Shown here piece after piece: positions 3,763 through 62,891 of a stretch of 64,000 nt of DNA. Each line of letters begins with the position of its first letter. Positions within the stretch are counted from its first letter, which is position 1. The position numbers and the translations under genes were made by a program. The notes under the pieces are model-generated. The model searched no databases. It saw only the letters and a program-made list of their open reading frames with translations, and was not told where the DNA came from. The DNA is from Candidatus Forterrea multitransposorum CG_2015-17_Forterrea_25_41. Its GTDB lineage: Archaea; Iainarchaeota; Iainarchaeia; Iainarchaeales; CSSED10-239. The DNA is taken from assembly GCA_009392915.1 (NCBI GenBank), contig CP045477.1, positions 672,001 to 736,000 on the forward strand. Reading direction: 5' to 3'.

Positions 3763-5796
3763 ATGAACTATATTGAACTTGCAAGTAAAATTGAAGAAAG
3801 AAAAGCTATTGTTCCTGGACATAGAACTTGTCCTGGGTGTCCTATAGCCATTATCTTAAGAACAGCATATGCTGCAACTGATAAAAAAATAATAACATCA
3901 TCTGCTACATCCTGTGCAGAAGTTACAACAACAATTTATCCTTACACCTCATGGAATGAACCTTGGATTCATTCTGTTTTTGCAAATGCTGCAGCAACCA
4001 TATCTGGTGTTGAAACTGCTTATAGAGCTTTAAAGAAAAAAGGAAAGATAAAAGAAGAAATTAAATTTATGGCTTTTGCTGGAGATGGTGGAGCTTTTGA
4101 TATTGGACTTCAGAGCCTTTCAGGAGCTCTTGAAAGAGGACATGATTTTGTTTTTGTTTGTTACGATAACGAAGGTTACCAAAACTGTTTATCAATAGAT
4201 TCATTAATAATGACAGAAACAGGTCTTAAAAAAATAACTGAAATTAAAAAAGGAGAGAAAGTCTGGGCTTTTGATCAAAATAAACATTTGCCGGTACTAA
4301 AAGAATGTACAGGGGTCTTTAATAATGGAAGAAAAAGAGTATACGAAATAGAAACTATACATCAAAATATAAAAGCAACATCAAACCACCCATTCTTAAC
4401 TTTAAAAAGAAACGGTAGAGGAAAAGAAAACGAGCTTATCTGGAAAACAGTTTCTCAATTAAAGGTAAATGATGAAATTGTAACTATGAGAAAACTTTAT
4501 GATAAAGGAAAAGCATATGAATTTAATAAAATAAAGCTAACTAAAAAAGGCGATTATAAAGTAAATATTATTAATGATGTTAAGCTTCCAGAAAAATCTA
4601 CAAAAGAATTAATGTTATGGCTAGGTTTATATGTTGGAGATGGATGGATTAGAGAAGAAAGAGGAGAAATTGGATTTGCTCTTCCAGAAAATACAGAAGA
4701 GAGAAAAATACTTCTTAAGATCCATAAGAAAATATTTGGACAAGAAAATAAATCTAAAGATAAATATTACATATACTATAATTCTGTAAATATTTCAAAA
4801 TTTATTAATTCCTTAGGGTTTATGCAAGGTGCTAAAAATAAAACAATACCATCTTGGGTTTTTACTTTACCAATAGATCAAAAAGAAGAATTTGTAAAAG
4901 GTTTATTAATGTCTGATGGATATATTTATAAAAAGAAAAAAGATAGTTGTAGATATTTATCAGCAAGCAAAGAATTAATTAAAAGATTAAGACTTTTACT
5001 TCAAACAATGGATTACAGAGTAGGAAAAATAACTATTCAGAAAAAACCAAAAGGAACTTTTGTAGTTTATAGAGAAATGTTAAATGATGGAGAATACTAT
5101 AGTATTTGTTTTAGTAAAAAAGACAAATGGGATGTTAAAAAATACCCTAACCAATACAAATATCAAAATTATTTTATTGAAAATGAATATTTTGAAACAA
5201 GAAAAATAAAAAATATTATTCCTAGAGGAATTGAACAAACATTAGATTTAAGAGTTGATGGAGAACACAACTTTATTGCAGATGGAATTGTTGTTCATAA
5301 CACAGGAGCACAACGATCCTCTGCAACACCTTATGGAGCTTCAACAACTACCACTCCTGGAGAGAAAAAAGAATTTCAAAAAGATCTTGCAAGGATAGCT
5401 ATTGCTCATAAAATACCATATGTTGCAACTGCAAACCCAGGAAATCTTTTAGACATGCATGAAAAGTTTAGAAAGGCTTTTGAAAAGAAAGGGCCAGCTG
5501 TAATCATTGTTTATGCAGCATGCCCTACAAACATGAAGGCTCCTGAAGACTTAACTATTGATATTTCAAAGCTTGCAACTGAAACTAATTTTTGGCCACT
5601 TTATGAAGTTGAAGATGGAAAATATAAAGTAAACTATAAGCCTGCAAATAAAAAACCTATTGAAGAATTTTTAAAAATGCAAACTAAGTTTAAAGAAGTT
5701 TTAAAAGATAAAAATGAAATTAAAAAAATACAACAAGAAATAGATGATGATTTTAAAGAACTTCTAAAAATGGAAGAAGCTTTTCCTTTAAAATAA
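3763..5796 (+). CDS. porB: Pyruvate:ferredoxin oxidoreductase beta subunit (TPP-binding), interrupted by an in-frame intein.
   Basis: N-terminal 'CPGCP', then 'AFAGDGGAFDIG' and 'YDNEGYQN|C...HN|TGAQ'. The extein motif reconstitutes as DNEGYQNTGAQ, the TPP-binding loop. 677 aa against about 300 aa for a normal PorB. Confidence 0.85.
   Translation: MNYIELASKIEERKAIVPGHRTCPGCPIAIILRTAYAATDKKIITSSATSCAEVTTTIYPYTSWNEPWIHSVFANAAATISGVETAYRALKKKGKIKEEIKFMAFAGDGGAFDIGLQSLSGALERGHDFVFVCYDNEGYQNCLSIDSLIMTETGLKKITEIKKGEKVWAFDQNKHLPVLKECTGVFNNGRKRVYEIETIHQNIKATSNHPFLTLKRNGRGKENELIWKTVSQLKVNDEIVTMRKLYDKGKAYEFNKIKLTKKGDYKVNIINDVKLPEKSTKELMLWLGLYVGDGWIREERGEIGFALPENTEERKILLKIHKKIFGQENKSKDKYYIYYNSVNISKFINSLGFMQGAKNKTIPSWVFTLPIDQKEEFVKGLLMSDGYIYKKKKDSCRYLSASKELIKRLRLLLQTMDYRVGKITIQKKPKGTFVVYREMLNDGEYYSICFSKKDKWDVKKYPNQYKYQNYFIENEYFETRKIKNIIPRGIEQTLDLRVDGEHNFIADGIVVHNTGAQRSSATPYGASTTTTPGEKKEFQKDLARIAIAHKIPYVATANPGNLLDMHEKFRKAFEKKGPAVIIVYAACPTNMKAPEDLTIDISKLATETNFWPLYEVEDGKYKVNYKPANKKPIEEFLKMQTKFKEVLKDKNEIKKIQQEIDDDFKELLKMEEAFPLK
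4186..5301 (+). mobile_element. Intein with a LAGLIDADG homing endonuclease domain inside porB (372 aa).
   Basis: Begins 'CLSIDSLIMTETG' (block A) with a block B 'TSNHPF'. Two LAGLIDADG-like motifs, 'LGLYVGDGWI' and 'KGLLMSDGYI'. Ends '...GIVVHN' followed by extein Thr (HN|T). Confidence 0.8.
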
Positions 5797-9654: not shown

Positions 9655-11382
9655 TCATTCTTCAATTTCTTCTTCTTCTTCAATTTCTTCTTCTATCTTG
9701 TCATCTTTTGCTTTTTGCTTTTGATCTTCTAAATCTTCCATTTTTAATTTTTCAAGAACCATTTTATCTAAATTCTTTTGAAGTTTAGTAGCATCAGCAC
9801 CTGTTATTCTTGAAAGAGCTTGAACAATTTCAGGAGCATATTTTGCAAAGACTTTTCTTTTTTCTAATTTTTCAGCTTCTTTCTTTTTATCAATAATATA
9901 TCTTCCAAGTCTTCTTGAAACATCCATTAAAGCAAGCTTTGTTTCTGCTAAAATTTCTTCTTCATCAGCAATTGCAGATTTACCAGCTGAAGTGTAAGGG
10001 ATATGCACAGAAATTAAATTTACAAAAACAGTTACTGGAGCAGATTCAAAATTATGAATACCATATCTTTTCCAATCAATAGATTGAACAGTTTTTGTAA
10101 TTGCACAACCTCCTGCATCAAATAAAAGAGGAGATTTATTTGCATATCTTATTATTTCAGAAACTCTTACTTCTTTAGTATCTTCTTCATTATCAAGAGA
10201 ATCTTTTCTGTTTTTAGCTTTTGGAGAAGAAACACTTACAAGACGTCCTGCATTACCTCCAAAAGCAACAGCAACTTCAACTTGGAAAGCATATCCTCCT
10301 TTATAAACAGAAGGCTTTCTAGTATACACAAAACAAAATTCAGGCTCAACAATTGTTTGTAAAGACTTTTCAATAAAATTTTCACCAATTGGAACTAAGT
10401 TATTTGTGTTTGGTGCAATAAATTTAGTTTTCTTAATAGCAGATACAATTTCTTCTGCTTCTTCCCAAGTTATTTTTCTTGGATCTTTATTAATATCAAA
10501 ATGAATCATTTTTGCAATTGAATCAACTGCAGTTTGACCAAATCTATCAAAAGTTAACATAAGATAAGAAGATATTTTTCTTGCAGAAGTATATCTTGCA
10601 AGAGATAATAATTCATCAACAGTAACTCCTCTAGGGTGAGGTTTTACTTGTTTTGGTATCTTTGGTAAAGTTTTAACTATTCTTTCATATTTTGTAACTT
10701 CTTGGAAAGGATCTTGAAAAACTATAGTTGCATGAGGATTTGCAATAGCAGTTCTTCTTAAATATTCATCAACAGAACCTTGTCCTTTCTTATACTGGAT
10801 TTCTTTAAATTTAGCTTTTATTCCAGTACCTCTAAATTTTTTTTCTAAATATACTTTATTTGTCATTTTTGGAGAATTAGTTTTTGAATCAATTGTTATT
10901 TCTAAAGAAACTGCTCTTTCTTTTGAAGTTCCAGAAATAACTTTTGTTGGTTTTCCAGTTGTAATTTGTGAAAATAAAATAATTCCTGAAACACCAATTC
11001 CTTGTTGTCCTCTAGTCTGAACTAACCTATGAAATTTAGTTCCAGCTAAAAGCTTTCCTAAAGCAGAACCAATTTTGTTTTCTGGAATACCAGGACCATT
11101 ATCCATTACAGATATTTCATAATATTCTTCTCCAATCTCTGAAATCTTAACTTCAATCTCAGGTAAGATACCTGCTTCTTCACAAGCATCTAAAGAATTT
11201 GTAACTAGTTCGTGAATAATTGTTGTTAAAGTTCTTTGTTTTCCATAAAGTCCTAACATTTGTCTGTTTTTTTTAAAAAAGTCAGCAACTGAATGTTCTT
11301 TAAATTCAGAGAATAAAACATTAGCATCTATTCCATCTTTTGAAACTTGAGTTTCTTGTTTTGTTATTTTTTCATTACTCAT
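9655..11382 (-). CDS. top6B: DNA topoisomerase VI subunit B (GHKL ATPase).
   Basis: Bergerat fold 'ELVTNSLDACEE' and 'MDNGPGI', plus a 'GQQGIG' G-box. Ends in an acidic tail. Adjacent to top6A. Confidence 0.85.
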   Translation of the reverse strand: MSNEKITKQETQVSKDGIDANVLFSEFKEHSVADFFKKNRQMLGLYGKQRTLTTIIHELVTNSLDACEEAGILPEIEVKISEIGEEYYEISVMDNGPGIPENKIGSALGKLLAGTKFHRLVQTRGQQGIGVSGIILFSQITTGKPTKVISGTSKERAVSLEITIDSKTNSPKMTNKVYLEKKFRGTGIKAKFKEIQYKKGQGSVDEYLRRTAIANPHATIVFQDPFQEVTKYERIVKTLPKIPKQVKPHPRGVTVDELLSLARYTSARKISSYLMLTFDRFGQTAVDSIAKMIHFDINKDPRKITWEEAEEIVSAIKKTKFIAPNTNNLVPIGENFIEKSLQTIVEPEFCFVYTRKPSVYKGGYAFQVEVAVAFGGNAGRLVSVSSPKAKNRKDSLDNEEDTKEVRVSEIIRYANKSPLLFDAGGCAITKTVQSIDWKRYGIHNFESAPVTVFVNLISVHIPYTSAGKSAIADEEEILAETKLALMDVSRRLGRYIIDKKKEAEKLEKRKVFAKYAPEIVQALSRITGADATKLQKNLDKMVLEKLKMEDLEDQKQKAKDDKIEEEIEEEEEIEE

Positions 11383-11537: not shown

Positions 11538-12812
11538 CTAACTTCTTAAATTAAATTTAAAAACAAAAGCATCTAATGGAAGATTGTTTTTAGCAGCAGT
11601 TACATTTTCTGAAGAATAATGATACATTTCGATATATTCTATATTTCCATTAAATTGTTCTGCAAAAGAATCAATAGAGCCTAAATTTGCAGCACCAAAA
11701 ACATTCTTAGGATTATAATTTTCAGAATAATAAATTGGATCAACATGTCCTCCATATGGCCAAGTCCAAACTTCTGAACAAATAATGTTCCTAAATTCAT
11801 CATAATAACATGCACTAAAGTTTTTTCCAGTCTTAAATAAAATTACTTCATAATAATCACTGGATGGAGGAAATTTAAATTCAGATTGAAAAGGTTCTGC
11901 AAATTCATCCCAACCTCCCCACCACCAAGAATTAGCACCACCAACAGCAACTATGTGTTGAGAAGGAATAATTTGTAATTTAAATCCACTCCTATTAGTC
12001 CCAGTCATTCCAACAGTCCCAGAATATTTATAAGACATTAAAGTATTTGCAGAAGTTAAAGAATCAATTTTAAATTTAAGTTTAATAATAAAATTTGAAA
12101 TATTTGGAAGATCTAGATCTCCATTAACATCAACATAACTTTCATTTACATCTAATCTATAAGCTAAAGGGAAAAGTTCTTCAAAAGAATAAATTTTATT
12201 TCCATCAAAATAATTATTATAATAAGAAAGAGTTTTTTCTCCAGAATCATCCCATCTAAAAGCAAATCTTGAAGAAGTTTTTGATTGATTATTTTTAACA
12301 GACTCAATAGATAAATAATAAGTATCTCCACAAGAAATAGTATCTAAAGGAATATTTGAAACAACTAAATTATTTAAAATATTTGGATTTAAATTTTCAG
12401 AATCCTGAATAACATCATTATAAGTTACAACATATCTACTATTTTCTATTTTTTCATTATTTGAAGTCTCTAAAATAAGTTTATAAGTACCATCTTTTGA
12501 AATTGGTTTCCAAGAAAAATCTAAAAGACCAACTTTATTTTTTGAATTTTCTGGATTAACTAAATAACAATCTAAATATTTTGCGTTTACAGAAACAATA
12601 GTAGGTGCTAAAGGAGCATCTTTTGAAGAAGAAATATTGTTTGCTTGATCTGAAACAGAATCTCTTGATTGTCCACCTAAAGATACAAGAATAGTTATTA
12701 TAATTACAGCAATTAATACAGCACCACCAATTAATATTAAAGTTTCAAGACTTGCTTGACCTTTATTTTTTAATAAATTTAGTAATTTAGAAGGATTTTT
12801 AATAATAGCCAT
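11538..12812 (-). CDS. Pilin-like surface protein with an archaeal class III (prepilin) signal peptide and a conserved N-terminal domain shared with two other proteins in the window.
   Basis: N-terminus 'KNKGQASLETLILIGGAVLIAVIIITILV'. The downstream 'SLGGQSRDSVSDQ...PLAPTIVSVNAKYLDC...SCGDTYYLSIESVKNNQSKTSSRFAFRWDD' is paralogous to the N-termini of ORFs 57654..62858 and 54616..55113. Confidence 0.6.
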   Translation of the reverse strand: MAIIKNPSKLLNLLKNKGQASLETLILIGGAVLIAVIIITILVSLGGQSRDSVSDQANNISSSKDAPLAPTIVSVNAKYLDCYLVNPENSKNKVGLLDFSWKPISKDGTYKLILETSNNEKIENSRYVVTYNDVIQDSENLNPNILNNLVVSNIPLDTISCGDTYYLSIESVKNNQSKTSSRFAFRWDDSGEKTLSYYNNYFDGNKIYSFEELFPLAYRLDVNESYVDVNGDLDLPNISNFIIKLKFKIDSLTSANTLMSYKYSGTVGMTGTNRSGFKLQIIPSQHIVAVGGANSWWWGGWDEFAEPFQSEFKFPPSSDYYEVILFKTGKNFSACYYDEFRNIICSEVWTWPYGGHVDPIYYSENYNPKNVFGAANLGSIDSFAEQFNGNIEYIEMYHYSSENVTAAKNNLPLDAFVFKFNLRS

Positions 12813-12879
12813 ACATAATCACTTATAATATTAGCTATATTAATGTATAAATACTTTACTAATAATTAAAAAAATCATT

Positions 12880-14988
12880 ATGTGCTCAATAATTGGTTTT
12901 GTAAACTACAAAGAAACTAAAAAAGAAATAATCTCTGCGTTTAAAACTCTAGAAAAAAGAGGTCTTGATGGATATGGAGTTTTTTGTAATGATAAGTGTA
13001 GTTATTTTAAAGAGATTAAAGAGATAGAATCTAAAAACATCCCTGATGATGTTGTTTTTGGACACAACTTACTTTCTATAACAGGAAATGTTTCACAACC
13101 TATTATTATTGATAAAAAAGTACTTTTATCTAATTGTGAAATATATAATTACAAAGAACTTTCTTCAAAATACAAAATAGATTCAAAAAATGATTCTGAT
13201 TTTTTACTTAAAGCAATAATAAAGATTGGAAAAAAAATATTTACTGAAATTAATGGACCTTATGCTATATGTTATTATGATGGCAGAGAAATTTATTTAA
13301 GAAGAGATTTATTAGGGATAAAGCCTTTATGGTATTCAATAGAAAAAAAATCATTTGGGTTTGCTTCAGAAAAGAAAGTTTTAGAAAATGCAGGTTTTAA
13401 AAAAATTGAATTTTTAGATCCTAGAAAAGAACTTTCTTATAATGTTTTAAAAAATAAAATTAGTTTTAAACAAATACCATTCTTTAAAATAGAAAAAAAA
13501 CAAACAACAAAAGAAAAAGTATATGAAAAACTAAAAAATGCAATTTTTAAAAGAGCATCTGGAAAACAAAAAATTGCTCTTTTATATAGTTCAGGAATAG
13601 ATTCTTTAGTTATTGCAAAAATTTTAAAAGATAATAAAATTCCTTTTAAAGGGTACTTTGCATATTCTCAAGATATTTTAAACCCTAAAGATCTTTCAAA
13701 TGTTTTAAGAACAGAAAAAGAATATGGTTTTTCTATTGAAAAGATTAAAATTTCTAAAACAGAAATTGAAAAAACATTACCTTTACTTATAGAGAGAGTA
13801 GAGTCATCAAACCCTATAAAAATTGGTGTGTCCTTACCTATATACTTTGCTTCAAAAAAAGCAAGAAAAGATGGTTGTAAAGTTATTCTTTCAGGACTAG
13901 GATCTGATGAAATTTTTGCAGGATATTCAAGATTTAAAGAATCAACTAATCTTTTAAAAGATACTTTAAACCTTTTATACCAAATGCATGAAAATGATCT
14001 TTATAGAGAAGATGTGGTTTGTACAAATAATAACATAGAAGCAAGATTTCCATATCTTGATAAAGAAGTTATTGAAGAATCTTTTTGCCTTACAGACAAA
14101 CAAAAAATTAATAATGAAGAAAATAAAGTAATCTTAAGAGAGATTGGAAAAGAAATTGGTCTTTTAAAAGAAGATTACAAGAGGAAAAAAACAGCAGCAC
14201 AATACGGAAGTGGATTTGATAAAATGATTGAAAAAATAGCAAAAGAAAATAATGTTAAACAAAAAGGAGAATTTCTTAAAAAACTTTCAAAAAAAGAAAA
14301 CCTTACTTTAGGATGTCTTTTCTCAGGTGGAAAAGATTCAAACCTTGCATACCACATTATGGCAAGACAAAATTATAAGATTGCATGCTTAATGACAATG
14401 GTCACTGAAAACCCAGATTCTTATATGTTTCAAAAAATTGATGAAAAAATACTTTCTCTTCAATCCAAAGCATTAGAAGTGCCTTTTGTTTTTCAAAAAA
14501 CAAAAGGAATTAAAGAAGAAGAACTTAAAGACCTTAAAAGATTACTTTTCAAAGCAAAAGAAAAATATTCTCTTCAAGGAATAATTACTGGTGCTATAAA
14601 AAGTAATTATCAAAGAGAAAGAATACAAGATGTTTGTAATGAACTTGGTTTAAGAATGTTTTCTCCTCTTTGGAACAAAACACAAGAAGGTGTTTTAAAA
14701 GAACTTTTAGATGATGACTACCAAGTAATGATTGTAAAAATTGCAGGACAAGGACTTTCTGAAAATTGGCTTGGAAAAGTTTTAACTAAAGAAGACGTCA
14801 TTAACTTAAAAATAATTAATAAAAAGAAAGGAATTAATGTTGCAGGAGAAGGAGGAGAATATGAAAGTATTGTTCTTGATGCTCCACTTTATAAGCAAAA
14901 AATAGTAATCACAAGTGCAAACCCAATTATGGAAAATGAAATCACTGGTTATTTAGATATTTTAAAATTAGGTTTAGAAGAAAAATGA
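12880..14988 (+). CDS. Asparagine synthetase (glutamine-hydrolysing) fused to a C-terminal MJ0570/Dph6-like PP-loop ATPase (diphthine-ammonia ligase-like) domain.
   Basis: Ntn glutaminase 'MCSIIGF...NGEIYNY-like...RDLLGIKPLWY'. AsnB PP-loop 'LYSSGIDSLVIA' and 'RFPYLDKEV...AAQYGSGFDK'. Second PP-loop 'LGCLFSGGKDSNLAYH...AIKSNYQRERIQDVCNELGL...SPLW' in the C-terminal 230 aa. Confidence 0.7.
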   Translation: MCSIIGFVNYKETKKEIISAFKTLEKRGLDGYGVFCNDKCSYFKEIKEIESKNIPDDVVFGHNLLSITGNVSQPIIIDKKVLLSNCEIYNYKELSSKYKIDSKNDSDFLLKAIIKIGKKIFTEINGPYAICYYDGREIYLRRDLLGIKPLWYSIEKKSFGFASEKKVLENAGFKKIEFLDPRKELSYNVLKNKISFKQIPFFKIEKKQTTKEKVYEKLKNAIFKRASGKQKIALLYSSGIDSLVIAKILKDNKIPFKGYFAYSQDILNPKDLSNVLRTEKEYGFSIEKIKISKTEIEKTLPLLIERVESSNPIKIGVSLPIYFASKKARKDGCKVILSGLGSDEIFAGYSRFKESTNLLKDTLNLLYQMHENDLYREDVVCTNNNIEARFPYLDKEVIEESFCLTDKQKINNEENKVILREIGKEIGLLKEDYKRKKTAAQYGSGFDKMIEKIAKENNVKQKGEFLKKLSKKENLTLGCLFSGGKDSNLAYHIMARQNYKIACLMTMVTENPDSYMFQKIDEKILSLQSKALEVPFVFQKTKGIKEEELKDLKRLLFKAKEKYSLQGIITGAIKSNYQRERIQDVCNELGLRMFSPLWNKTQEGVLKELLDDDYQVMIVKIAGQGLSENWLGKVLTKEDVINLKIINKKKGINVAGEGGEYESIVLDAPLYKQKIVITSANPIMENEITGYLDILKLGLEEK

Positions 14989-37437: not shown

Positions 37438-39750
37438 ATGAAGATAGGAAACTACACTGTTGGAGACCATGTAGTTACAACTGAAGGTAATAAGAAAAAA
37501 TTAGTTTTTGATTGTAGAAATTGTCCTTATAATACATCAATTGCAGAAGACCCTAGATGTAGGTTTCATGCAATGAAAGTTTTAGAAACTGTTGATGCTG
37601 ATGAAATAATCTTAGCTGAAGTTTATGAAAGAAACTATAATGAAGAACAAACTAAATATTTAAAAGAAATGGTAAACCTACTTTTAGAATTTGAAAATAG
37701 AGCTGTCTGGGTATCACAACATCTTGGAATAAAGGATATTGATTGTGATGAATGTTATCCTGAAAGACATAATAATATTATTAAATTTGCAAGAGAACTT
37801 TTAGCATATGATCCTATAGCCTCATATATTAGTCTTTTAAAAGAAATAGAAAATACAAAAAACAGAGGAAATGAAAGAAAAGGACAACCATGTGAACCAT
37901 GTTTTGTTGCAAATGTTAAACATTTATCAAAATTAAAAGAAATGTTTGAAAAAACAGATTTTATAAGAAAAATAAAACCTTTATTATTAAAAATAAAAGA
38001 TTTATCTGAAGTTACAGACATCTATAGAACAATTTTTGAAGTTGAAATTAAACCTGCATTTATTGGTTCAAAATTAACTTTTAAAGACATGGATACTTTA
38101 GAACTTCTAGATGAATATCAAGTATTAAACACAACAGTTCAAATTTTTAAACATCCAGAAAAAGTTGAAAACATTTATTTAATTAATCCTCCTGAATATA
38201 CCTTATCACCAGATCATTATTTTGTTTTAACTAAAACAAAAGAAACTGTTGCAAACTATAAACCAGGAAAAGTAACTTTAACAACTGGAGAGTCTACAAG
38301 AAAATATTTCCAAAGAATATATCAATCAACAATTATTGATATTGCAAAAAAATATAATATTGAACTTTCACCTGATGATGTTTATTCACTTTCAGAAATT
38401 GTTACAAGATACACTATTGGATATGGGGTTTTAGAATTATTATTATCAGATAAACAAGTTACAGATGTTTATCTAGATTCACCATTAGGTGCAAAACCAA
38501 TATATTTAGTGCATTCAAAATATGGACAATGTCAAACAAATGTACATTATCCAGAAAAAGATGCAGAAAGCTTTGTTGGAAAAATAAGAGCAATGTCTGG
38601 AAGACCATTTGATGATGCACACCCTGTCTTAGACTTTGATATGCCAGACTTAAATACCAGAATTGCAGTTATTGGAAGACCTCTTGCAACAGATGGTATA
38701 GCTTTTGCTTTTAGGTTACATAAAGATACTCCATGGACTTTACCACAACTTATAAATGTTAAATCCTTAAATCCTTTAGCTGCTGGAATGTTAAGTTTCT
38801 TTATTGATAATAACTCAACTCTTTTAGTTGCAGGATCTCGTGGTGCAGGAAAAACTTCACTTATGACAGCTTTAATGCTTGAAATTTTACAAAATGCAAG
38901 AATTATTGTGCAAGAAGACACTTTAGAGCTTCCTATAACTTATATGAAAGATATTGGTTTTAATGCTCAAAGATTAAAAACAAGATCTGCAATTGGAGGA
39001 TCAGGAGATCAATCTAATGCAGAAGTAAAACCTGAAGATGCTTTAAGAACAGCCTTAAGATTAGGTGATTCTGCTTTAATTGTTGGAGAAGTAAGATCAG
39101 TTGAAGCAAAAGTACTGTATGAAGCCATGAGAGTTGGTGCTGCAGGGAACGTTGTTATGGGAACTATTCACGCAGACTCAGCTTATGCTGTATGGGATAG
39201 AGTAGTTAATGATTTAGGAGTGCCTACCACTTCATTTAAAGCAACAGACATTATTGTTGTTGCAAAGCCAATTAGGTTTAAAGGTTCTCTTAAAAGTTAT
39301 AGAAGAGTTGTACAGATAACAGAAGTTAGAAAACATTGGAATGATGATCCTGAAGCTGAAGGTGGAATTTTAAATTTAATGGAATATGATGCTTCTAAAG
39401 ATACTTTAGTTTTAAACGAAGATGCTTTAAAAGATTCTGAAATCTTTTCAAAAATATCTAAACTTACAGGTATGACAATTGAAGAGATTTGGGATAATAT
39501 TACTTTAAGATCAAAAGAAAAGAAATTCCAAGTAGAATTTGCAAATGAAAAAGGAGTAATTGAACTTTTGGAAGCTGAACATACTGTTTTTGTGCATAAT
39601 AAACTACTTATTACAAAAGAAGACTATTTAGAAGAACATGGAAAAACAGATTATGATCAAGTCTTTGAGCTTTGGAAGAAATGGTATATAGAAAAGTTTG
39701 CTCCAAGGATGATGAAGAGAATAATTGAGAATAGAAAAAGTGAAGAATAG
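37438..39750 (+). CDS. Type II/IV secretion-system ATPase of the archaeal FlaI/PilB/TadA family, with an unusually long Cys-containing N-terminal extension.
   Basis: Walker A 'LLVAGSRGAGKTSLMTAL', 'IIVQEDTLEL', Asp box and 'VGEVRSVEAKVLYEAMRVGAAGNVVMGTIHADSA' (His box). N-terminus has 'CRNCPYN...CRFH' and 'CDECYP...CEPC'. Confidence 0.7.
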   Translation: MKIGNYTVGDHVVTTEGNKKKLVFDCRNCPYNTSIAEDPRCRFHAMKVLETVDADEIILAEVYERNYNEEQTKYLKEMVNLLLEFENRAVWVSQHLGIKDIDCDECYPERHNNIIKFARELLAYDPIASYISLLKEIENTKNRGNERKGQPCEPCFVANVKHLSKLKEMFEKTDFIRKIKPLLLKIKDLSEVTDIYRTIFEVEIKPAFIGSKLTFKDMDTLELLDEYQVLNTTVQIFKHPEKVENIYLINPPEYTLSPDHYFVLTKTKETVANYKPGKVTLTTGESTRKYFQRIYQSTIIDIAKKYNIELSPDDVYSLSEIVTRYTIGYGVLELLLSDKQVTDVYLDSPLGAKPIYLVHSKYGQCQTNVHYPEKDAESFVGKIRAMSGRPFDDAHPVLDFDMPDLNTRIAVIGRPLATDGIAFAFRLHKDTPWTLPQLINVKSLNPLAAGMLSFFIDNNSTLLVAGSRGAGKTSLMTALMLEILQNARIIVQEDTLELPITYMKDIGFNAQRLKTRSAIGGSGDQSNAEVKPEDALRTALRLGDSALIVGEVRSVEAKVLYEAMRVGAAGNVVMGTIHADSAYAVWDRVVNDLGVPTTSFKATDIIVVAKPIRFKGSLKSYRRVVQITEVRKHWNDDPEAEGGILNLMEYDASKDTLVLNEDALKDSEIFSKISKLTGMTIEEIWDNITLRSKEKKFQVEFANEKGVIELLEAEHTVFVHNKLLITKEDYLEEHGKTDYDQVFELWKKWYIEKFAPRMMKRIIENRKSEE

Positions 39751-43346: not shown

Positions 43347-45860
43347 CTAGTCTAACATTTCGATAGCGTTGATTAATTCTTTTGCAGCGTCAGCTGTGTC
43401 TGCAGCAGAGAATCCAGCAACAACGATGTTACCGTTTTCAACAGAACCAACAACAAATTGACCAGCTTCTGTTAAGAATTCATCAGTAATTCCACTAGCT
43501 AAAGAATTAACTAAGTGTCCACCAACGATTATCTTAGCACCAGCACTTGTCATTGTTTCGTTGTCAAGGTATACAATTCTTTGTGTACTTGCATTCCAGT
43601 TAGCAGGTGTCATAGCTGTCATTTCTTCTCCACCAGTTACTGTTGAAGTGATTAATTTAGCTGAGATCATACCGTCTTCTGTTTCAACAACTGTACCAGG
43701 AGTAGTTAAAACAAGTTCTCCACCGTTAAGTGTAGTTTCTGAAGAAACTCCTCCACCTATGAAGATTTGTCCTTTTAATTGTTTCTCAGGAAGAGTAAAC
43801 ATTGGATACCCGTCTTCTATTGTTGCGTAAGCACCGTATGTTGTATAACCGAAAACTAAATCTGAATCGTTACCTTTATCTGATAAATCAAATGTGTCTG
43901 ACCCATTAGCACCGTATACTTGCTTATAAGTACCTAAAAAGTCATTATCATTTAAGTTAACCATATCTCCTGTGTATGCATCCATATACATTGTAATAGA
44001 ATCTGATCCATTAGTTACAGTTATTGCAGCAATAGATTCAAAATCATCATTTGCATAATTATCTGTAAATGTTGCACTATCTACTCTATCACCAATAAAT
44101 GAAGCATCAGATATAAATCCAGCAGCAGTATTAGTTGAATCTATTCCAGAAACATCCCATGTATAACCTGTGTCTCCAATTCCTAAATCAACTGTTTGAT
44201 TATTTTTCAAACCCATTGCAACTGTTTTAATTGTATTATAAACTGCATCTGCAGAAGCTGTTTTTGCAACACCAGGAGCTACCATCACAGTATACTCTAC
44301 ATCTCTAGCATCGTTGTTATATAAAGGAATTCTTAAATTTGTATATAATCCTGTATTAACATCTTGAACACTACCAGATTTAGAATAATAATCAGGAGTA
44401 GTTGAAACCCATGTTGGAGTTGATCCATCTGCACCAGTTAAATACTTACCATCTGAATCTTCTAATTGAACTGTGAAATTAACATCATTAGCAGCAGCAG
44501 TATAGAACTTGAAATACAATTCTTTACCATCTAATAATAATGAAGTGTATGAATCTCTAGCAGTTGTTGCTTCGTCGTAATCATACATGAAAACTTCGTG
44601 ATCTTTTCTATCAGCATCTGTAAAGTAGATGTAATTATCTTGAGCATAGAATTCTGCTGATTTTTCTTCAGTTAAACCTAAGAAATCAATTGAACCAAAT
44701 CCTAAAGGAAGCTCTACTGAATCTCCAACTCTTAATGAGTCATCATTAGTAAATCTTAATGATGTATCATCTGTAGATAAAGTGATTTTTGTTAAATAAC
44801 CAGAAGCACCAGGTGCTGAAGGAGTAAAATCAACTTTCCATAATTTATCATCTTTATTAGGGAAATCAGTTATTTTTGACCCATTCTTTAACTCTAATTT
44901 TCCTGAAGATCCAGTTATTACTTTAACAGTAGTTGCGTAAACAGTATCAACATCGATATTAGATTCTAAGTAGCTATCAAATATCTTTGTATCACCAGTT
45001 CTGAATACATCAGTTGCAACAACACTACCTGTTGAATCTTTTAAGTTCATTTCAGCTTGGTATCTGTTTGTTGTGTCACCAGTATCTAAAATATTTACAA
45101 CTTCAATTGTGTAATCGTCAGCAGTAAATGATGCACCAGGAGCATATGTTTGAGTAGCTAAGTTTTGAACTAATTTTAATGTTGTACCATCGAATGAATC
45201 AACAGTGTAGTTCTTACCCATTAAATTAAATTTAAGTCTTGGGCTTGCACCAGCATCTGTGTAATCTCCTTTAATACCTTCATCAAAATCAACAGAGTAT
45301 GATATAGCACCTTTGTCGATTGAAGCAACTAAATCTTTGACATCTTTATCTTTATTAAAGTAAACATTTGCTGTTACTGACAACTCATCAGAAATTGTTA
45401 AAGTACTTGCACCAGCGTGATCTGAATCAGCAGATGTATCTGTCTTATATAACATAGAATAATCTGTTTCATCAATTACTTTTGCAGTATTAGTCATATC
45501 ATTTAATGTGTAATTATCTGATAAGTAACCGTCACCTGATATTGTTGATGTACTTGAAGAACCTACTTCGATAGTTACGTCTTGTAAAGAAGCTCCGCCA
45601 ACTGTACCTGTAGTTGTGTATGCTTTCTTTCCGATAGCAGCAGCTATGTTACCAGCCCATACTACATCAACTGGTTGTGCCATAGAACCAACTACAACAC
45701 TAACACTTGGAACACCATTATTATACATTGTATCTTTAGTGATGTTCATAGAAAAGTTATCTGCACCAACGTTAGCAGCAACAACTGATCCAGCTAAAAG
45801 AGCTGAAACACCTAAAGCAGCTACACCAGCAACAACTTTTTTCATGTTTATATTTTTCAT
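43347..45860 (-). CDS. Secreted S-layer-like surface protein.
   Basis: Signal peptide 'MKKVVAGVAALGVSALLAGSVVAANVGA'. 837 aa, T/S/D/G/V-rich with beta-rich low-complexity composition. GC content and codon usage are visibly higher than the neighbours. Confidence 0.5.
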   Translation of the reverse strand: MKNINMKKVVAGVAALGVSALLAGSVVAANVGADNFSMNITKDTMYNNGVPSVSVVVGSMAQPVDVVWAGNIAAAIGKKAYTTTGTVGGASLQDVTIEVGSSSTSTISGDGYLSDNYTLNDMTNTAKVIDETDYSMLYKTDTSADSDHAGASTLTISDELSVTANVYFNKDKDVKDLVASIDKGAISYSVDFDEGIKGDYTDAGASPRLKFNLMGKNYTVDSFDGTTLKLVQNLATQTYAPGASFTADDYTIEVVNILDTGDTTNRYQAEMNLKDSTGSVVATDVFRTGDTKIFDSYLESNIDVDTVYATTVKVITGSSGKLELKNGSKITDFPNKDDKLWKVDFTPSAPGASGYLTKITLSTDDTSLRFTNDDSLRVGDSVELPLGFGSIDFLGLTEEKSAEFYAQDNYIYFTDADRKDHEVFMYDYDEATTARDSYTSLLLDGKELYFKFYTAAANDVNFTVQLEDSDGKYLTGADGSTPTWVSTTPDYYSKSGSVQDVNTGLYTNLRIPLYNNDARDVEYTVMVAPGVAKTASADAVYNTIKTVAMGLKNNQTVDLGIGDTGYTWDVSGIDSTNTAAGFISDASFIGDRVDSATFTDNYANDDFESIAAITVTNGSDSITMYMDAYTGDMVNLNDNDFLGTYKQVYGANGSDTFDLSDKGNDSDLVFGYTTYGAYATIEDGYPMFTLPEKQLKGQIFIGGGVSSETTLNGGELVLTTPGTVVETEDGMISAKLITSTVTGGEEMTAMTPANWNASTQRIVYLDNETMTSAGAKIIVGGHLVNSLASGITDEFLTEAGQFVVGSVENGNIVVAGFSAADTADAAKELINAIEMLD

Positions 45861-47539: not shown

Positions 47540-49927
47540 TTAGTAAGGCAAAGCAGCATTGTTATTTGCAAGAAGACATAAACAAACTTTTAAATCTACT
47601 TGAGAAGTAAACTGAGTAACTCCATCGTTTGTAGTTAAAGTTAAAGTTCTTGTAAAACCTGCAGGGAAATTACCTAAATAAGTTAAACTTCTATTTGGTT
47701 CTATTAAAGAAGGTTGTGAAACTTTAAATAATTTAGAAGAAATATTTGTTTTAGGTAAAGGTTTAGTTGTTATTGATAAATTATTACTCTTTACAGAAGT
47801 GTAAGGAGGAGACGCTAAACCTAAGTCATATGGACTTGCAGAAAAATTACAATCGTTTGAAATTATTTGAGAACCATACTTCCAAACACAACTTACATTA
47901 TTATAATTATTATAAACAGCAACAGTAAAATCTAAATCTTCTTTGTAAGGATAACTTCTGTTTTCTTCAGGACTTAAAACTTCATGATAATGTGCTTCTG
48001 GCATTGTAACATTAATTGTTACAATATCTGTGTCTTGTCTTGAAAAATCATCTGTTACTATTAATTTAATTTCATATTCTGAAGTTTCTAAATTTAATTG
48101 ACCAGGAGTTTTATTTAAGTTACATTGGTTTGAAAAATTAGTATAAGAACTATTACCTTGTTTTTTGTGTTGCCATTGACAACTAGAATCGCCAATTTCA
48201 TTTTCTATAGAAGAAGAAAATGAAATAACATCATCAATCTCATAAGAAGAATTGTTTTCTGGAGAAGTGATTTCTGCTTCAAGGTCTAAAGGTTCTGTAA
48301 CTGTTAAATAAACATCAACAGTTGTTCCACTTTCTGATAAACCTTCAAGACGGATACCACTATCAACTAAACCATTGTAGGTTGTTGAAGTGGTGTCTCT
48401 TATTACTTGACAATTTGGATCGATTCTTGAAACATCATCAAATTTACCTTCTACAATTTCTGGGTTACAACCACCAAAATCATCCGGAAGTTCGGTTGTA
48501 TATAGATCACTATGAGTTCTAGAAGGGCTAGTATAAGCATCTAATATATTTTGTTCGAAAATAATACCAGGATGACTTATTGTATCATCATAATAATCAT
48601 CATCTTCATCGTACATGATACTGTTAAAAGCTATATCCCCAGCATAACGATCATCAATATAAGCTTCATCAACATGTAAAACATCTATTCCACCATTTGC
48701 ATTAAAAACTGGTGTAGTTACACCAAATAAATATCTATCTAAAGAAGTATCAGAAATATATCTATTAGTGATTAAAAAATATTCTCGATCACCCATGGTA
48801 TCAGGGTTGTTTAAAAGATAAGCATCATTACTAGTATCATAAGGACCTAAACTATAAATGTCTGCTTGAGAAGCAGAATTTATAACAACAGGATTAAGCC
48901 AGCCAAAAAAGAATTTTGACCAAGAATCAAAATTAACTGGTTTTTTATGATCTTGACCAACATCAATATCAAAAACCATTACAGTGTGACCTCCAAGACC
49001 AGAGCCTAACTGAATACCAGTATAACTAAGTTCATAAAGATCTGGAAGACCTAAAACATGAGCAAACTCATGAACAGCAGAATCAATACTTAATCTACAG
49101 TCTGTTGGATAATTAAAATAATTTATCCAGTTTTGACAAATAGATTGAAGATGACGAGAAGGAACTACAGCAACATTACCATAAAGCATACCTTGTATTT
49201 CTAAAGTTGTTTCTTTATAAATTCTTGCTTGAGAAATAATATTATTACCCATCTCTTGAGCAGGAAGACCAGCATGAACTAAAACAACACCATCAAGTCT
49301 ACCATCACCATCAGAATCATATTGTGTGAAATCAATTGAATTACTTCCAGTTCCAAAAAGATTTAATGTTTCAACAATAAGTTCATGAACATTATTGTTG
49401 TTATAATAATAACTATAATTGTGAGAAACAGTTCTCCAATCATAAACATCATATGAAATATCTAAAGAATCATAAGAATTGTGTTTATAAAATTCACTTA
49501 CACTTATACCTTCACCAGATAAATAATTATTTGAATTATAAACATCATCATAAACTGATGCTGTTAAACCTGCATCAGGAGAAAGATCAGGAAATTTAAC
49601 TAATAAAACAGGAATACTATAATTACCGGTTGTTGGAGAAGTTCCTATTTTATTATCTAAGGTTGTTGTTTCAAAATCTCTTGTAGAAACATTAGAAGAA
49701 TAATTTAAACCTAAACTTGCAGGAGTTTCTCCTGGAGGAAGACAAATACTTCCTGAACAATAACTTGAAAGAATTGGTGGAATTTCAAAGACAGGAGGTT
49801 TAGATTTTGTAATTGGTTTTATAACTGCAATATTTTCTGCACTTGAAGAAGCTTCTTTAGAATAAACTAAAGGAAGAAGTAAAAGTGAGAAAATTATTAT
49901 AACTACTAAAAATATTCTTTTATCCAT
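47540..49927 (-). CDS. Secreted zinc metalloprotease, M6 (immune inhibitor A-like) family.
   Basis: Signal peptide 'IFLVVIIIFSLLLLPLVYS'. 'AVHEFAHVLGLPDLYE' matches the M6 HExxHxxGxxD motif. 795 aa with C-terminal beta domains. Confidence 0.65.
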   Translation of the reverse strand: MDKRIFLVVIIIFSLLLLPLVYSKEASSSAENIAVIKPITKSKPPVFEIPPILSSYCSGSICLPPGETPASLGLNYSSNVSTRDFETTTLDNKIGTSPTTGNYSIPVLLVKFPDLSPDAGLTASVYDDVYNSNNYLSGEGISVSEFYKHNSYDSLDISYDVYDWRTVSHNYSYYYNNNNVHELIVETLNLFGTGSNSIDFTQYDSDGDGRLDGVVLVHAGLPAQEMGNNIISQARIYKETTLEIQGMLYGNVAVVPSRHLQSICQNWINYFNYPTDCRLSIDSAVHEFAHVLGLPDLYELSYTGIQLGSGLGGHTVMVFDIDVGQDHKKPVNFDSWSKFFFGWLNPVVINSASQADIYSLGPYDTSNDAYLLNNPDTMGDREYFLITNRYISDTSLDRYLFGVTTPVFNANGGIDVLHVDEAYIDDRYAGDIAFNSIMYDEDDDYYDDTISHPGIIFEQNILDAYTSPSRTHSDLYTTELPDDFGGCNPEIVEGKFDDVSRIDPNCQVIRDTTSTTYNGLVDSGIRLEGLSESGTTVDVYLTVTEPLDLEAEITSPENNSSYEIDDVISFSSSIENEIGDSSCQWQHKKQGNSSYTNFSNQCNLNKTPGQLNLETSEYEIKLIVTDDFSRQDTDIVTINVTMPEAHYHEVLSPEENRSYPYKEDLDFTVAVYNNYNNVSCVWKYGSQIISNDCNFSASPYDLGLASPPYTSVKSNNLSITTKPLPKTNISSKLFKVSQPSLIEPNRSLTYLGNFPAGFTRTLTLTTNDGVTQFTSQVDLKVCLCLLANNNAALPY

Positions 49928-49985: not shown

Positions 49986-51023
49986 TTAATTTAAACCAAG
50001 AGAAAAACACACTTCTCCATTTGAGTTTGTAACACAAACTGGTTCTAAATCATAGTATTCAGATAAATCTGGATGACTTACATAAAATGTAGCATCTCCT
50101 TCTGAAGAACTATCTGATGCTGAAAATCTATTAAGACAAAGGTTTACAGAACCATTAGAATTTGTTTGTGCACTACAAAGTGCATATTCTGGAGCATCTT
50201 GAACAGGAAGTGTAAACTCTAACATCTTTTCATCAGAATTACCATTTTGATCTATTCCTGTAAAATAAAAATTAAAAACTCCTTCTTGATTACAAGAAAT
50301 ATTACTTGCAAGTTCTTCTTCTGGATTAAGACTTGAGAAAGTATGTATGAATAATCCTTCTGCTGTTGCAGGAACTTGAGTTCCATCGTAACTACATGCA
50401 TTACTTAAAACAATTTCATTAATTGCAGAGTTATATGTTTTTACAACTAAACTAACATCAACTAATTGTTCTTCAGTTGAATTAAAATCTATACTTAAAG
50501 TTGTAGGATAAGGTTGATTTACATTTGCACTTGCTGTTGGATGTGGACTTAAATTTAAAATAAATGTATTAGGAAGAGAATTTCCATATTCACAAGAAGA
50601 ATAATCTATTTCACAAGAAACACAATTATAAACATCATTAATTAAAAAATAACCAAATGGAAGATTATCTATACAACCTTCAGAATCTGGACCTAAAACA
50701 ATAGAACCATTCACCCATTCACATTCCTCGCCAGTATTTAAAACATTATCTCCACAAACACCACCTGGAATTGGGTCAGGATCATCATTACCTACTCCTC
50801 CAGAACCACCAGCATTACCATCCCCACCGCCTACAGAACCTAAGCCATCACCATCTCCTGATGGAATATAGTTAGATAGATCTACTTCTGGTATATCTTG
50901 AGTATTATCTATTTTTTTATTAATGTTAGATAAATAAAATGTTGCAAAAACAACACTACCTAAAACTATAACACCTATAATAATTATTGCTTCTAAAGAA
51001 ACCTGTCCTTTATCTCTAATCAT
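49986..51023 (-). CDS. Pilin-like protein with a class III signal peptide, a Gly-rich linker and a Cys-rich globular domain.
   Basis: 'MIRDKGQVSLEAIIIIGVIVLGSVVF' (prepilin-type). Then 'GDGDGLGSVGGGDGNAGGSGGVGND' followed by more than 12 Cys. Confidence 0.55.
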   Translation of the reverse strand: MIRDKGQVSLEAIIIIGVIVLGSVVFATFYLSNINKKIDNTQDIPEVDLSNYIPSGDGDGLGSVGGGDGNAGGSGGVGNDDPDPIPGGVCGDNVLNTGEECEWVNGSIVLGPDSEGCIDNLPFGYFLINDVYNCVSCEIDYSSCEYGNSLPNTFILNLSPHPTASANVNQPYPTTLSIDFNSTEEQLVDVSLVVKTYNSAINEIVLSNACSYDGTQVPATAEGLFIHTFSSLNPEEELASNISCNQEGVFNFYFTGIDQNGNSDEKMLEFTLPVQDAPEYALCSAQTNSNGSVNLCLNRFSASDSSSEGDATFYVSHPDLSEYYDLEPVCVTNSNGEVCFSLGLN

Positions 51024-51228: not shown

Positions 51229-51879
51229 ATGACAAAAAAAGAAAACAATTTAATGTATATTAAAATTCTTTTAGGTGCAATCTTAGCAGTTTTAGTTTTA
51301 TTATTAGTATTGAATCTATCAAACAATAATAAAACAGCAGATGCTTTTTTAAAAGAAACAACAAGTAAAACAGATAACCAAGCAAATCATTTTTTAGGAA
51401 ATGAAGATGCACCTTTAGTAATGTATGAATATTCTTCTTTTACATGTCCTTTTTGTAAAAGATATCAAATAGATGATCAAACTTTTGAAACTATTAAAAA
51501 AGAATATATAGATACAGGAAAAATTAAATATGTTTATCAACACTTTGTAAGAAACGAAATAGATATTAAAGCTGCAAATGCTGCTGAATGTGCAGGAGAA
51601 CAAGATATGTTCTTTGAATATAAAAAGAAACTTTATGAAAATCAAACAGATTTACCAAAAGAAGAATTTTCAAAGTATGCACAAGAACTTGATTTAGATG
51701 TTACAGCTTTTGAAAGTTGTCTTGCAGAAAACAAATATGTAAACAAAATAACACAAGATAAACAAGATGGTGTTAATAAAGGAATTAGTGGAACACCAGG
51801 ATTTATTGTTGGTAACCAAAGAATATCTGGTGCTCAAGACTATCAAGTCTTTAAAGCAGCAATAGATGAACAACTATGA
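51229..51879 (+). CDS. DsbA-like thioredoxin-fold thiol:disulfide oxidoreductase (secreted or membrane-anchored).
   Basis: N-terminal TM, then 'YSSFTCPFCKRY' (CxxC) in a thioredoxin-fold context, and a 'GTPGFIVG' cis-Pro region. Confidence 0.7.
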   Translation: MTKKENNLMYIKILLGAILAVLVLLLVLNLSNNNKTADAFLKETTSKTDNQANHFLGNEDAPLVMYEYSSFTCPFCKRYQIDDQTFETIKKEYIDTGKIKYVYQHFVRNEIDIKAANAAECAGEQDMFFEYKKKLYENQTDLPKEEFSKYAQELDLDVTAFESCLAENKYVNKITQDKQDGVNKGISGTPGFIVGNQRISGAQDYQVFKAAIDEQL

Positions 51880-54615: not shown

Positions 54616-55113
54616 TTATTCATTCCAACCAAACTTATAACCTTGTGAAGTTACAATTTGGTTGTTTTTAATAGAATCAATATACAAGTAATATGTATCA
54701 CTACATTTATTATCATATCCTTCTAAAATAACATATCCTCTTACATCTTTATTCATTTTTGGATCAAGATATGCACCAGGAAAACCTACATTATCACTAG
54801 AAGTTACTTTTAATTCCATTAGGTTTGCAGAAGCATCTTTTAAATATACTTTATATCTTTGATCTTCTCCTTTAGGAACCCAATCAAAAGTAAAATATGC
54901 TTTATCACCTGCAACACAATCTTGATATTGCGCATTTACATTTATAATATAAGCAGGAAGAGGAGCATTATTACCTTGAGCAGTAATTTTAATTGCATCT
55001 CCTGTAGTAGTTAATGTAGTGGTTACAATTATTCCTAAGATTAATCCTAAGATTAAACCAAATAAACCATACACCATTATTTGTTTTTTATTTTTCATTT
55101 TTAAAAACCTCAT
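54616..55113 (-). CDS. Membrane-anchored protein carrying the same conserved domain found at the N-termini of the pilin-like proteins 11538..12812 and 57654..62858.
   Basis: N-terminal TM 'IMVYGLFGLILGLILGIIV'. 'VNAQYQDC...YFTFDWVPKGEDQRYKVYL...KCSDTYYLYIDSIKNNQIVTSQGYKFGWNE' is paralogous to the other two. No canonical class III cleavage motif. Confidence 0.45.
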   Translation of the reverse strand: MRFLKMKNKKQIMVYGLFGLILGLILGIIVTTTLTTTGDAIKITAQGNNAPLPAYIINVNAQYQDCVAGDKAYFTFDWVPKGEDQRYKVYLKDASANLMELKVTSSDNVGFPGAYLDPKMNKDVRGYVILEGYDNKCSDTYYLYIDSIKNNQIVTSQGYKFGWNE

Positions 55114-55202
55114 TTTAATTTTTATAAATTATAATTAATTAAAGATATTGTTATAGAAAACCTTTATAAAATAAACTTTTAAAAAAAAAGAAAGAAAACA
55201 AA

Positions 55203-56311: not shown

Positions 56312-56366
56312 TTTTAAAAAAAAAGAAAGAAAACAAATAAAAACATAAACTTCTTAAATATTAAAT

Positions 56367-62858: not shown

Positions 62859-62891
62859 AATTAATTCCTATTTAAATTTAAAAAAAATCAT

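Follow-up and report, generated by a model that had tools for sequence, protein, structure and literature searches.

In a stretch of 64,000 nucleotides (nt) from the genome of Candidatus Forterrea multitransposorum CG_2015-17_Forterrea_25_41 (contig CP045477.1, positions 672,001 to 736,000 of the forward strand; hereafter the window), three genes encode proteins of 424, 1734 and 165 amino acids (aa), here called p424, p1734 and p165, which have a homologous module of ~125 residues in common. We consider it probable that this module forms the globular head of certain archaeal type IV pilins, which make up a small, unannotated family, and that p424 and p1734 are archaeal modular pilins. The source lineage, Iainarchaeota, belongs to the DPANN archaea, which have tiny genomes and in many cases depend on contact with other cells. 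To our knowledge, how they attach is largely undescribed, and the proteins reported here are candidates for surface-attachment proteins in Iainarchaeota. The window has a G+C content of 25.7% and encodes archaeal topoisomerase VI A and B, MCM, diphthamide synthase and an S-layer protein.

Three homologous proteins in the window

The three genes, taken from a listing of open reading frames (ORFs), and the parts of their products are as follows.

11538-12812, minus strand: p424 gene, 424 aa
12675-12812, minus strand: p424 residues 1-46; 18-residue leader ending in KG, predicted cleavage before Q19 (QASLE, Glu at +5), hydrophobic helix
12231-12626, minus strand: p424 module, residues 63-194; predicted FN3-like beta-sandwich head, with Cys82 and Cys161 invariant (module C20 and C99)
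11541-12230, minus strand: p424 C-terminal domain, residues 195-424; fold not recognised
57654-62858, minus strand: p1734 gene, 1734 aa
62754-62858, minus strand: p1734 residues 1-35; leader MLPSKKG, Q8 as predicted mature N-terminus, hydrophobic helix
62310-62705, minus strand: p1734 module, residues 52-183; 55% identity to the p424 module
54616-55113, minus strand: p165 gene, 165 aa
54619-54981, minus strand: p165 module, residues 45-165; 27-31% identity to the p424 and p1734 modules

An initial annotation of this DNA had claimed a conserved module in p424, in a giant adhesin (p1734) and in the 165-aa protein, and had made the claim depend on significant pairwise alignment. All three pairs aligned significantly in BLASTP: p424 and p1734 with E 2e-67 (50% identity over 255 aa), p424 and p165 with E 2e-14 (31% identity), and p1734 and p165 with E 1e-11 (27% identity). 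The ORF positions and peptide strings that had been quoted were present as described. Judged from the sequences, the homology of the three proteins is far above chance. The common part had been called an N-terminal domain, a description that falls short for p424 and p1734, which have their whole N-terminal ~190 residues in common: class III signal peptide, hydrophobic helix, 'SLGGQSRDS' linker and module. The alignment of these two begins at the extreme N-terminus, where the first 60 residues of p424 are 62% identical to p1734 in tblastn, and past residue ~192 of p424 (181 of p1734) it dissolves into sparse, gapped matches. In p165 the module is the sole part in common with the other two. No fourth copy was found in the window, either by tblastn with each module or by searching all window ORFs with a hidden Markov model (HMM) of 21 family members.

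A rare family in DPANN archaea

An exhaustive HMMER search of 1.84e9 representative proteins with a profile of the three copies returned 30 matches at E<=1e-3. About 20 of these are single-stretch, full-length matches in which an N-terminal hydrophobic segment is immediately followed by the module, beginning at residue ~35-90; the remaining ~10 match Ig, He_PIG or Big_9 repeat proteins weakly and in several stretches, and hint at an Ig-like fold for the module. A word-indexed homology search recovered one truncated copy with the module alone and 8 proteins with a 21-sequence profile. Scanning GTDB genomes and JGI metagenomes with 8 closer sequences as query gave at least 25 loci of the family. 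The scan pattern, C[GSA]D[ST]YY[LV]xI[ED], restricts the relatives that can be found, so that locus counts are lower bounds. One locus, L007, has DNA 96% identical to the window and comes from Ca. ainarchaeum STF1_257.

The module matches none of the Pfam or NCBIfam families, and Pfam at E<=1 gives nothing apart from the signal peptide. Against PDB sequences, the 21-sequence module profile, a profile of the p424 C-terminal domain and the short pilin described below produced only noise (E >= 0.3). Two NCBIfam hits were rejected as spurious, DUF499_antiphage for p1734 (44.8 bits against a 1200-bit cut-off) and E492 microcin for p165 (E 0.015). The module family is rare, unannotated, seen only in metagenome-assembled genomes (MAGs) of DPANN-type archaea, and new. 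Those genomes that are named are Candidatus Iainarchaeum or ainarchaeum MAGs and the other two are labelled 'uncultured archaeon', a distribution that agrees with the lineage specificity proposed initially. A profile of the module could annotate ~30 protein clusters that are now labelled hypothetical or unnamed.

Short relatives in pilus operons

The short class III members of the family (158-192 aa) have no parts beyond signal peptide, helix and module, and all those with readable upstream sequence lie directly downstream of pilus-machinery genes (loci L005, L006, L018, L019, L021 and L028-L031). In L005, L006, L019, L021 and L028 the genes preceding them encode a T2SSE ATPase and two T2SSF proteins; in L018 and L029-L031, where the contigs are cut upstream, one or more T2SSF genes precede them. 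The short module genes often stand in tandem, two or three together. An A24 prepilin peptidase gene is found downstream in all three loci with readable downstream sequence: L005 and L006 have a Peptidase_A24+Arc_PepC gene (373-375 aa) and then further small class III genes, and the start of an A24 gene is seen in L021. With its ATPase and two separate platform genes, this layout is that of 'system 1' archaeal type IV filaments, which have two platform genes per operon and have been reported in methanogens and DPANN (bioRxiv 10.64898/2026.04.22.720090).

The short pilins end 0-3 residues past the final 'F-x-W' of the head. Since the module is the entire globular part of these operon-encoded proteins, we read it as a pilin head, in line with the tadpole plan of archaeal pilins, in which a helix is followed by a two-sheet beta head (PMC11178815). 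For the same reason we prefer pilin head and carrier to the 'adhesin scaffold' that had been suggested for the module. Over the 34 N-terminal residues of the mature proteins, p424 and an L005 operon pilin are ~74% identical, as read by eye from the sequences.

Class III signal peptides

A motif scan found [KR][GA]Q[GAS]x[LIV]E, and after it a run of ~25 hydrophobic residues, in 27 of the 32 family members, p424 and p1734 included; KGQGALEYLLLIGGAVLIAVIVIALLVGMGGQSRD is one example. Mature proteins cut at this site would begin with Gln and have Glu at position +5. The p424 site reads KNKG followed by QASLETLILIGGAVLIAVIIITILV, and the p1734 site SKKG followed by QGNLETLILIGGGVLVAVIIVTILV. The same combination, KGQ with a +1 Gln and a +5 Glu, characterises the Epd pilins of Methanococcus maripaludis, which are processed by a large dedicated peptidase, EppA (PMC4371748). 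Scored against PF04021 (Class_IIIsignal; cut-off 23.7 bits), p424 reached 23.2 bits (E 6.4e-5) and p1734, weakly, 11.4 bits, while several relatives scored above the cut-off, at 25-30 bits. The NCBI protein identical to p424, NCP71800.1, is named 'class III signal peptide-containing protein'. By these features p424 and p1734 belong to the class III signal peptide proteins, and cleavage between KG and Q is predicted for both. The label 'pilin-like', which the initial annotation gave to p424, suits p424 and p1734 and not p165, which is without a class III signal.

The p1734 leader is short. An in-frame ATG lies 11 codons upstream of the p1734 start (62859-62891, minus strand) and is followed after seven codons by TAG; in tblastn the stretch upstream of the start aligns to the longer leader of p424, and the relatives at L003 and L009 have longer leaders as well. 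The leader of p1734 may have been shortened through a nonsense mutation and restart.

Predicted fold and a putative disulfide

AlphaFold2 (AF2), run on the module with 21 sequences, gave an all-beta sandwich with a predicted local distance difference test score (pLDDT) of 93.3 and a predicted template modelling score (pTM) of 0.86. The model is a seven-strand sandwich that superposes on fibronectin type III (FN3) domains, and its best Foldseek match is human fibronectin FN3 (E 4e-3); other matches include the carbohydrate-binding or adhesin beta-sandwiches BhCBM56, Epf adhesin and PsaA. Of the two folds that had been put forward, pilin-like and lectin-like, the prediction supports neither the alpha-beta roll of bacterial pilins nor a lectin fold. 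The pattern of W39 in strand B, Y48 in strand C, L94 ahead of strand F and Y103/Y104 within it mirrors the hallmark residues of FN3. Single-sequence AF2 of full-length p424 gave a pLDDT of 39, with the helix at residues 22-54 the sole part at 60-75 and the C-terminal region below 50.

Five positions are invariant in the 21 aligned members, C20, W39, C99, D101 and S118 (module numbering); the AB-loop insertion and the C'-E region vary strongly in length and sequence. Of the invariant Cys residues, one is in the A-B insertion and the other in the E-F loop. Since an FN3 sandwich has these loops at the same pole, a disulfide between the two residues is plausible, and the module is probably pinned by one such bond. 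This fits the Cys content of the family, exactly two in most short members and, in p165, two in total that are both the invariant ones. It also fits the presence in the window of a candidate oxidase gene.

51229-51879, plus strand: DsbA/thioredoxin-like protein with an N-terminal hydrophobic segment (Pfam Thioredoxin_4 1.6e-34, DSBA 4.7e-13)

The product of this gene is a plausible oxidase of the invariant Cys pair.

Cargo on the putative pilin unit

Both p424 and p1734 continue beyond the 'F-x-W' that closes the head into a 'DSGxKT' linker, which leads to the cargo. That of p1734 comprises ~1550 residues, in which Pfam finds 11 stretches each of the overlapping CHB_HEX_C_1 and Fn3_assoc models, three Ig_7 domains and, at residues 1549-1730, Gly_rich_2. 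The cargo of p424 is a 230-aa domain common to two further proteins, P0002 and P0037. P0037 (GW835_04080, 378 aa), encoded on the same 839,632-bp contig as NCP71800.1, has this domain on a different N-terminus, whose hydrophobic segment 'KSISPLISVILLIVVSIAF' resembles the archaeal Pilin_N motif, without confirmation by Pfam. On the same N-terminal unit as in p424 and p1734, relatives carry an RCC1 propeller, PKD with Laminin_G_3, CHB_HEX_C arrays or Gly_rich_2. BLASTP and the Pfam annotation of window proteins and relatives thus bear out the domain shuffling that had been proposed: C-terminal parts vary on a constant N-terminal unit. A pilin module with an extra non-pilus domain attached through a short linker, the architecture that defines modular pilins (Raynaud et al. 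2021), is found in p424, p1734 and their relatives.

A LamG/ConA-like fold for the p424 C-terminal domain, parallel to that of Streptococcus sanguinis PilC, was considered and is not supported; a Pfam search of four homologues of the domain gave no match at E<=10, and hhalign against the Laminin_G_3 of P0026 returned a probability of 0.1%.

Several further observations concern the cargo genes. The ENA contig that carries P0037 (L027, with features at 10001-11137 and 12171-14504; the identical protein is on the 839,632-bp contig) also encodes, ~1 kb from P0037, a 777-aa protein with PKD, Cadherin-like and Gly_rich_2 domains. The occurrence of Gly_rich_2 in both this protein and p1734 indicates that surface proteins of the genome mix modules combinatorially. 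Within p1734, three tandem 750-nt units (59700-61499) each encode 250 aa with about three CHB_HEX_C-type domains and are 87% identical over a 300-nt core; Tandem Repeats Finder with a maximum period of 500 did not report them. Several related contigs end within homologous giant genes, and such repeats probably break assemblies of these genes. In a contig of JGI metagenome 3300025124 that is 99.99% identical (L001, 9530-10804), the p424 gene differs in the length of two homopolymers that lie 11 nt from each other, one a T longer (T4 to T5) and the other a T shorter (T3 to T2), at window positions ~12369-12380 (codons 145-148). The resulting TAA is in frame, and gene calling splits p424 into pieces of 147 aa and 166 aa. 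The break is a real inactivating variant or else an error of sequencing or assembly.

p165 and its surroundings

p165 has a transmembrane anchor or signal that is not class III (MRFLKMKNKKQIMVYGLFGLILGLILGIIV), then the head module and nothing more. Its orthologues in L007 and L023-L026 have the same N-terminus, and in the motif scan the conserved N-terminus of this clade (MRFLKMKNKKQIMVYGLFGLILGL...) was without a G/A-Q cleavage motif. From these features we read p165 as a membrane-anchored or Sec-secreted cell-surface paralogue and not as a filament subunit. All three proteins are read as surface or secreted, as the initial annotation had them.

Immediately upstream of p165 lies an insertion sequence (IS) element at 55199-56325, with a DDE_Tnp_1 transposase ORF at 55275-56237 (plus strand). 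The same position in L007 (929-1943) holds a 304-aa gene whose product starts with a p165-type 'MRFLKMK' leader; in the window, the IS element has thus taken the place of a surface-protein gene or been exchanged with it. The ~3.2-kb segment 53122-56362, made up of a 265-aa ORF, p165 and the IS element, has no DNA match in Candidatus Iainarchaeum FAS170219_bin_363, where just ~470 nt separate the flanking matches (L002, 15034-15507). The absence of a counterpart there places p165 in a variable island.

Other genes of the window

Three further features of the window bear on the interpretation.

37438-39750, plus strand: lone T2SSE-family ATPase, 770 aa (Pfam T2SSE 3.2e-17); the window has no other machinery gene of the type IV filament type
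43347-45860: S-layer protein gene (Pfam scan)
49986-51023, minus strand: 345-aa, Cys-rich protein with a Gly/Asp-rich linker, the third with a class III-type N-terminus (MIRDKGQVSLEAIIIIG...; motif scan)

The T2SSE ATPase is 30% identical to the ATPase of the L005 operon, and a region of ~290 aa at its N-terminus precedes the aligned part. Its gene stands between one for a nucleotidyltransferase and one for an AAA_14/DUF4143 ATPase. With its 30% identity and no adjoining platform or pilin gene, it is at most a candidate for the cognate pilus ATPase. The 345-aa protein matched no Pfam family and not the module, and its gene lies just downstream of one for a 795-aa M6 (immune inhibitor A-like) peptidase (47540-49927).

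Two more genes of the window were noted. Adjoining p424, the ORF at 12880-14988 (plus strand) encodes 702 aa with GATase_7, Asn_synthase and diphthamide synthase (Diphthami_syn_2) domains, an unusual-looking fusion. The gene at 3763-5796 (plus strand) is identical to one in L001 (16546-18579), whose Pfam annotation has Intein_splicing and LAGLIDADG_3 within a TPP_enzyme_C protein. The annotation points to an intein in a subunit of a 2-oxoacid:ferredoxin oxidoreductase.

Proposed model and alternatives

The basic unit of the family consists of a class III signal peptide, a hydrophobic helix that would form the filament core, a polar 'GGQSRD...' linker and the head. In the model that we propose, p424 and p1734 would be inserted through Sec and cleaved between KG and Q by a large EppA-like A24 peptidase, after which the ATPase and platform would pull the helix into the filament core. 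This would leave the FN3-like head exposed at the filament surface and its C-terminal cargo pointing outward, available for attachment. The helix of p424 and p1734 would be in the pilus, probably at its tip or sparsely along it, or would at least be kept in the membrane. On this model the genome has kept the pilin unit as a carrier and grafted cargo onto its C-terminus, so that a pilin unit would be reused for very large, interchangeable adhesin arrays.

Several points weigh against assigning p424 and p1734 to pili. Their PF04021 scores (23.2 and 11.4 bits) are under the Pfam cut-off of 23.7 bits. None of the three genes adjoins pilus machinery; the lone T2SSE ATPase is 17-25 kb away, and a search that covered the window found no T2SSF or A24 homologue. 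No machinery occurs within 10 kb of any long relative. No short class III pilin of the family was seen in the genome, where p165, with no class III signal, is the sole head-only protein. The module also stands behind non-class III signals, in the p165 clade and in P0012, and so has no strict tie to pilins. Finally, a subunit of 1734 aa is far larger than the modular pilins described so far, the largest of which in one survey has 860 aa (PMC8179133).

Some of these points are what would be expected if p424 and p1734 were envelope-anchored adhesins, with the class III signal and helix serving for export and anchoring and the module, close to the membrane, acting as a spacer that raises the cargo through the S-layer. 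We regard this as a possible, if doubtful, explanation. It draws on the lack of machinery near any long family member, on p165 and P0012, in which the module follows ordinary anchors, on the S-layer protein gene at 43347-45860, and on precedents among class III substrates other than pilins, such as the sugar-binding proteins of the Sulfolobus bindosome, whose prepilin-like subunits are mentioned in PMC4371748. A mere anchor, however, would not be expected to have an N-terminal helix and 'GGQSRD' linker conserved at ~74% between p424 and the short pilins of the operon. The short members, moreover, are helix and module only and occupy the position of the major pilin in the operon, and the same architecture in bacteria (PilB, PilC, CofB) is incorporated in pili (PMC8179133).

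The module could instead bind ligands itself, in a lectin-like or adhesive manner, and have been duplicated for recognition of a host or substrate. This is compatible with the other readings, and we judge it unlikely. The AB-loop insertion and C'-E region vary as they would under diversifying pressure, and some of the Foldseek matches are carbohydrate-binding or adhesin sandwiches (BhCBM56, Epf, PsaA); the best structural matches, however, are plain FN3 domains and not carbohydrate-binding modules or lectins. The analysis identified no conserved residues of a pocket, the invariant positions (the Cys pair, Trp and the Tyr-Tyr of strand F) seem to have a structural role, and the long proteins have separate and more obvious candidates for binding domains. 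Adhesive functions more likely reside in the C-terminal cargo than in the module. Similarity through chance or compositional bias in a 26% G+C genome deserves almost no credence: an AT-rich genome (25.7% G+C) does inflate matches rich in Asn, Lys and Ile, but this explanation is refuted by BLASTP E-values of 2e-67 to 1e-11 obtained with compositional adjustment, by five residues (Cys, Trp, Cys, Asp and Ser) that stay the same across 21 sequences of different organisms, and by the confident common AF2 fold.

The pilin interpretation can be extended, more speculatively, to the largest proteins. p1734 and its relatives of 1479-1542 aa might be genuine filament subunits, with their FN3-like head and helix seated in a DPANN pilus and a stalk of ~1550 residues extending to capture a host cell or a surface, an idea that we put forward only tentatively. 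If it is true, proteins of the p1734 kind would be by far the largest type IV pilins known, the pili would be the attachment organelle of Iainarchaeota with swappable adhesins, and p165 could be a membrane-bound docking or priming partner.

Comparison with known systems

In its fold the module compares with FN3 domains such as NCAM FN3 (2vkw), tenascin and CD45 d1-d4. It differs from them in giving no Pfam fn3 match at E<=1, in having 25-35 more residues, with strand A separated from strand B by an insertion and with a C'-E region that varies, and in its invariant Cys pair, which is absent from classical FN3. At the level of sequence the module is not a member of Pfam fn3. AapB of Sulfolobus acidocaldarius is likewise a tadpole, with an N-terminal helix and a beta-rich, two-sheet head (PMC11178815). 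The two have no sequence similarity, and the module family has a polar linker between helix and head.

In its workings the system resembles Epd-type archaeal pili combined with the modular pilins of bacteria. Its closest counterparts are the Epd pilins (EpdA-E) and EppA of M. maripaludis and the 'system 1' archaeal type IV filaments. The likeness extends to the KGQ site with its +1 Gln and +5 Glu, to the dedicated large A24 peptidase in the operon, to the ATPase with two separate T2SSF genes and to the tandem pilin genes (PMC4371748; bioRxiv 10.64898/2026.04.22.720090). The family described here differs in its head, which is not detectably related in sequence to Pfam or NCBIfam families, in its DPANN lineage and, in the window, in the fusion of the pilin unit to large cargo away from the machinery.

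With the modular pilins of bacteria (S. sanguinis PilB, a pilin with vWA, and PilC, a pilin with a ConA-like lectin; CofB of enterotoxigenic Escherichia coli), p424 and p1734 have in common an N-terminal pilin carrier, a short linker and C-terminal functional modules in many architectures (PMC8179133; PMC9934059). In contrast to these, their signal is archaeal class III (PF04021) and not the bacterial IPR012902, their predicted head is an FN3-like sandwich and not an alpha-beta roll packed on alpha-1C, and their cargo reaches ~1550 residues, compared with a maximum total length of 860 aa in the bacterial survey (PMC8179133). That survey covered bacteria only. p424 and p1734 would be an analogue of the bacterial modular pilins and not members of the published set, and the 'modular pilin' principle, surveyed so far in bacteria only (PMC8179133), would extend to archaea. 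What is new is the head family, its use as a carrier for up to ~1550 residues of cargo, and a paralogue on a non-pilin anchor.

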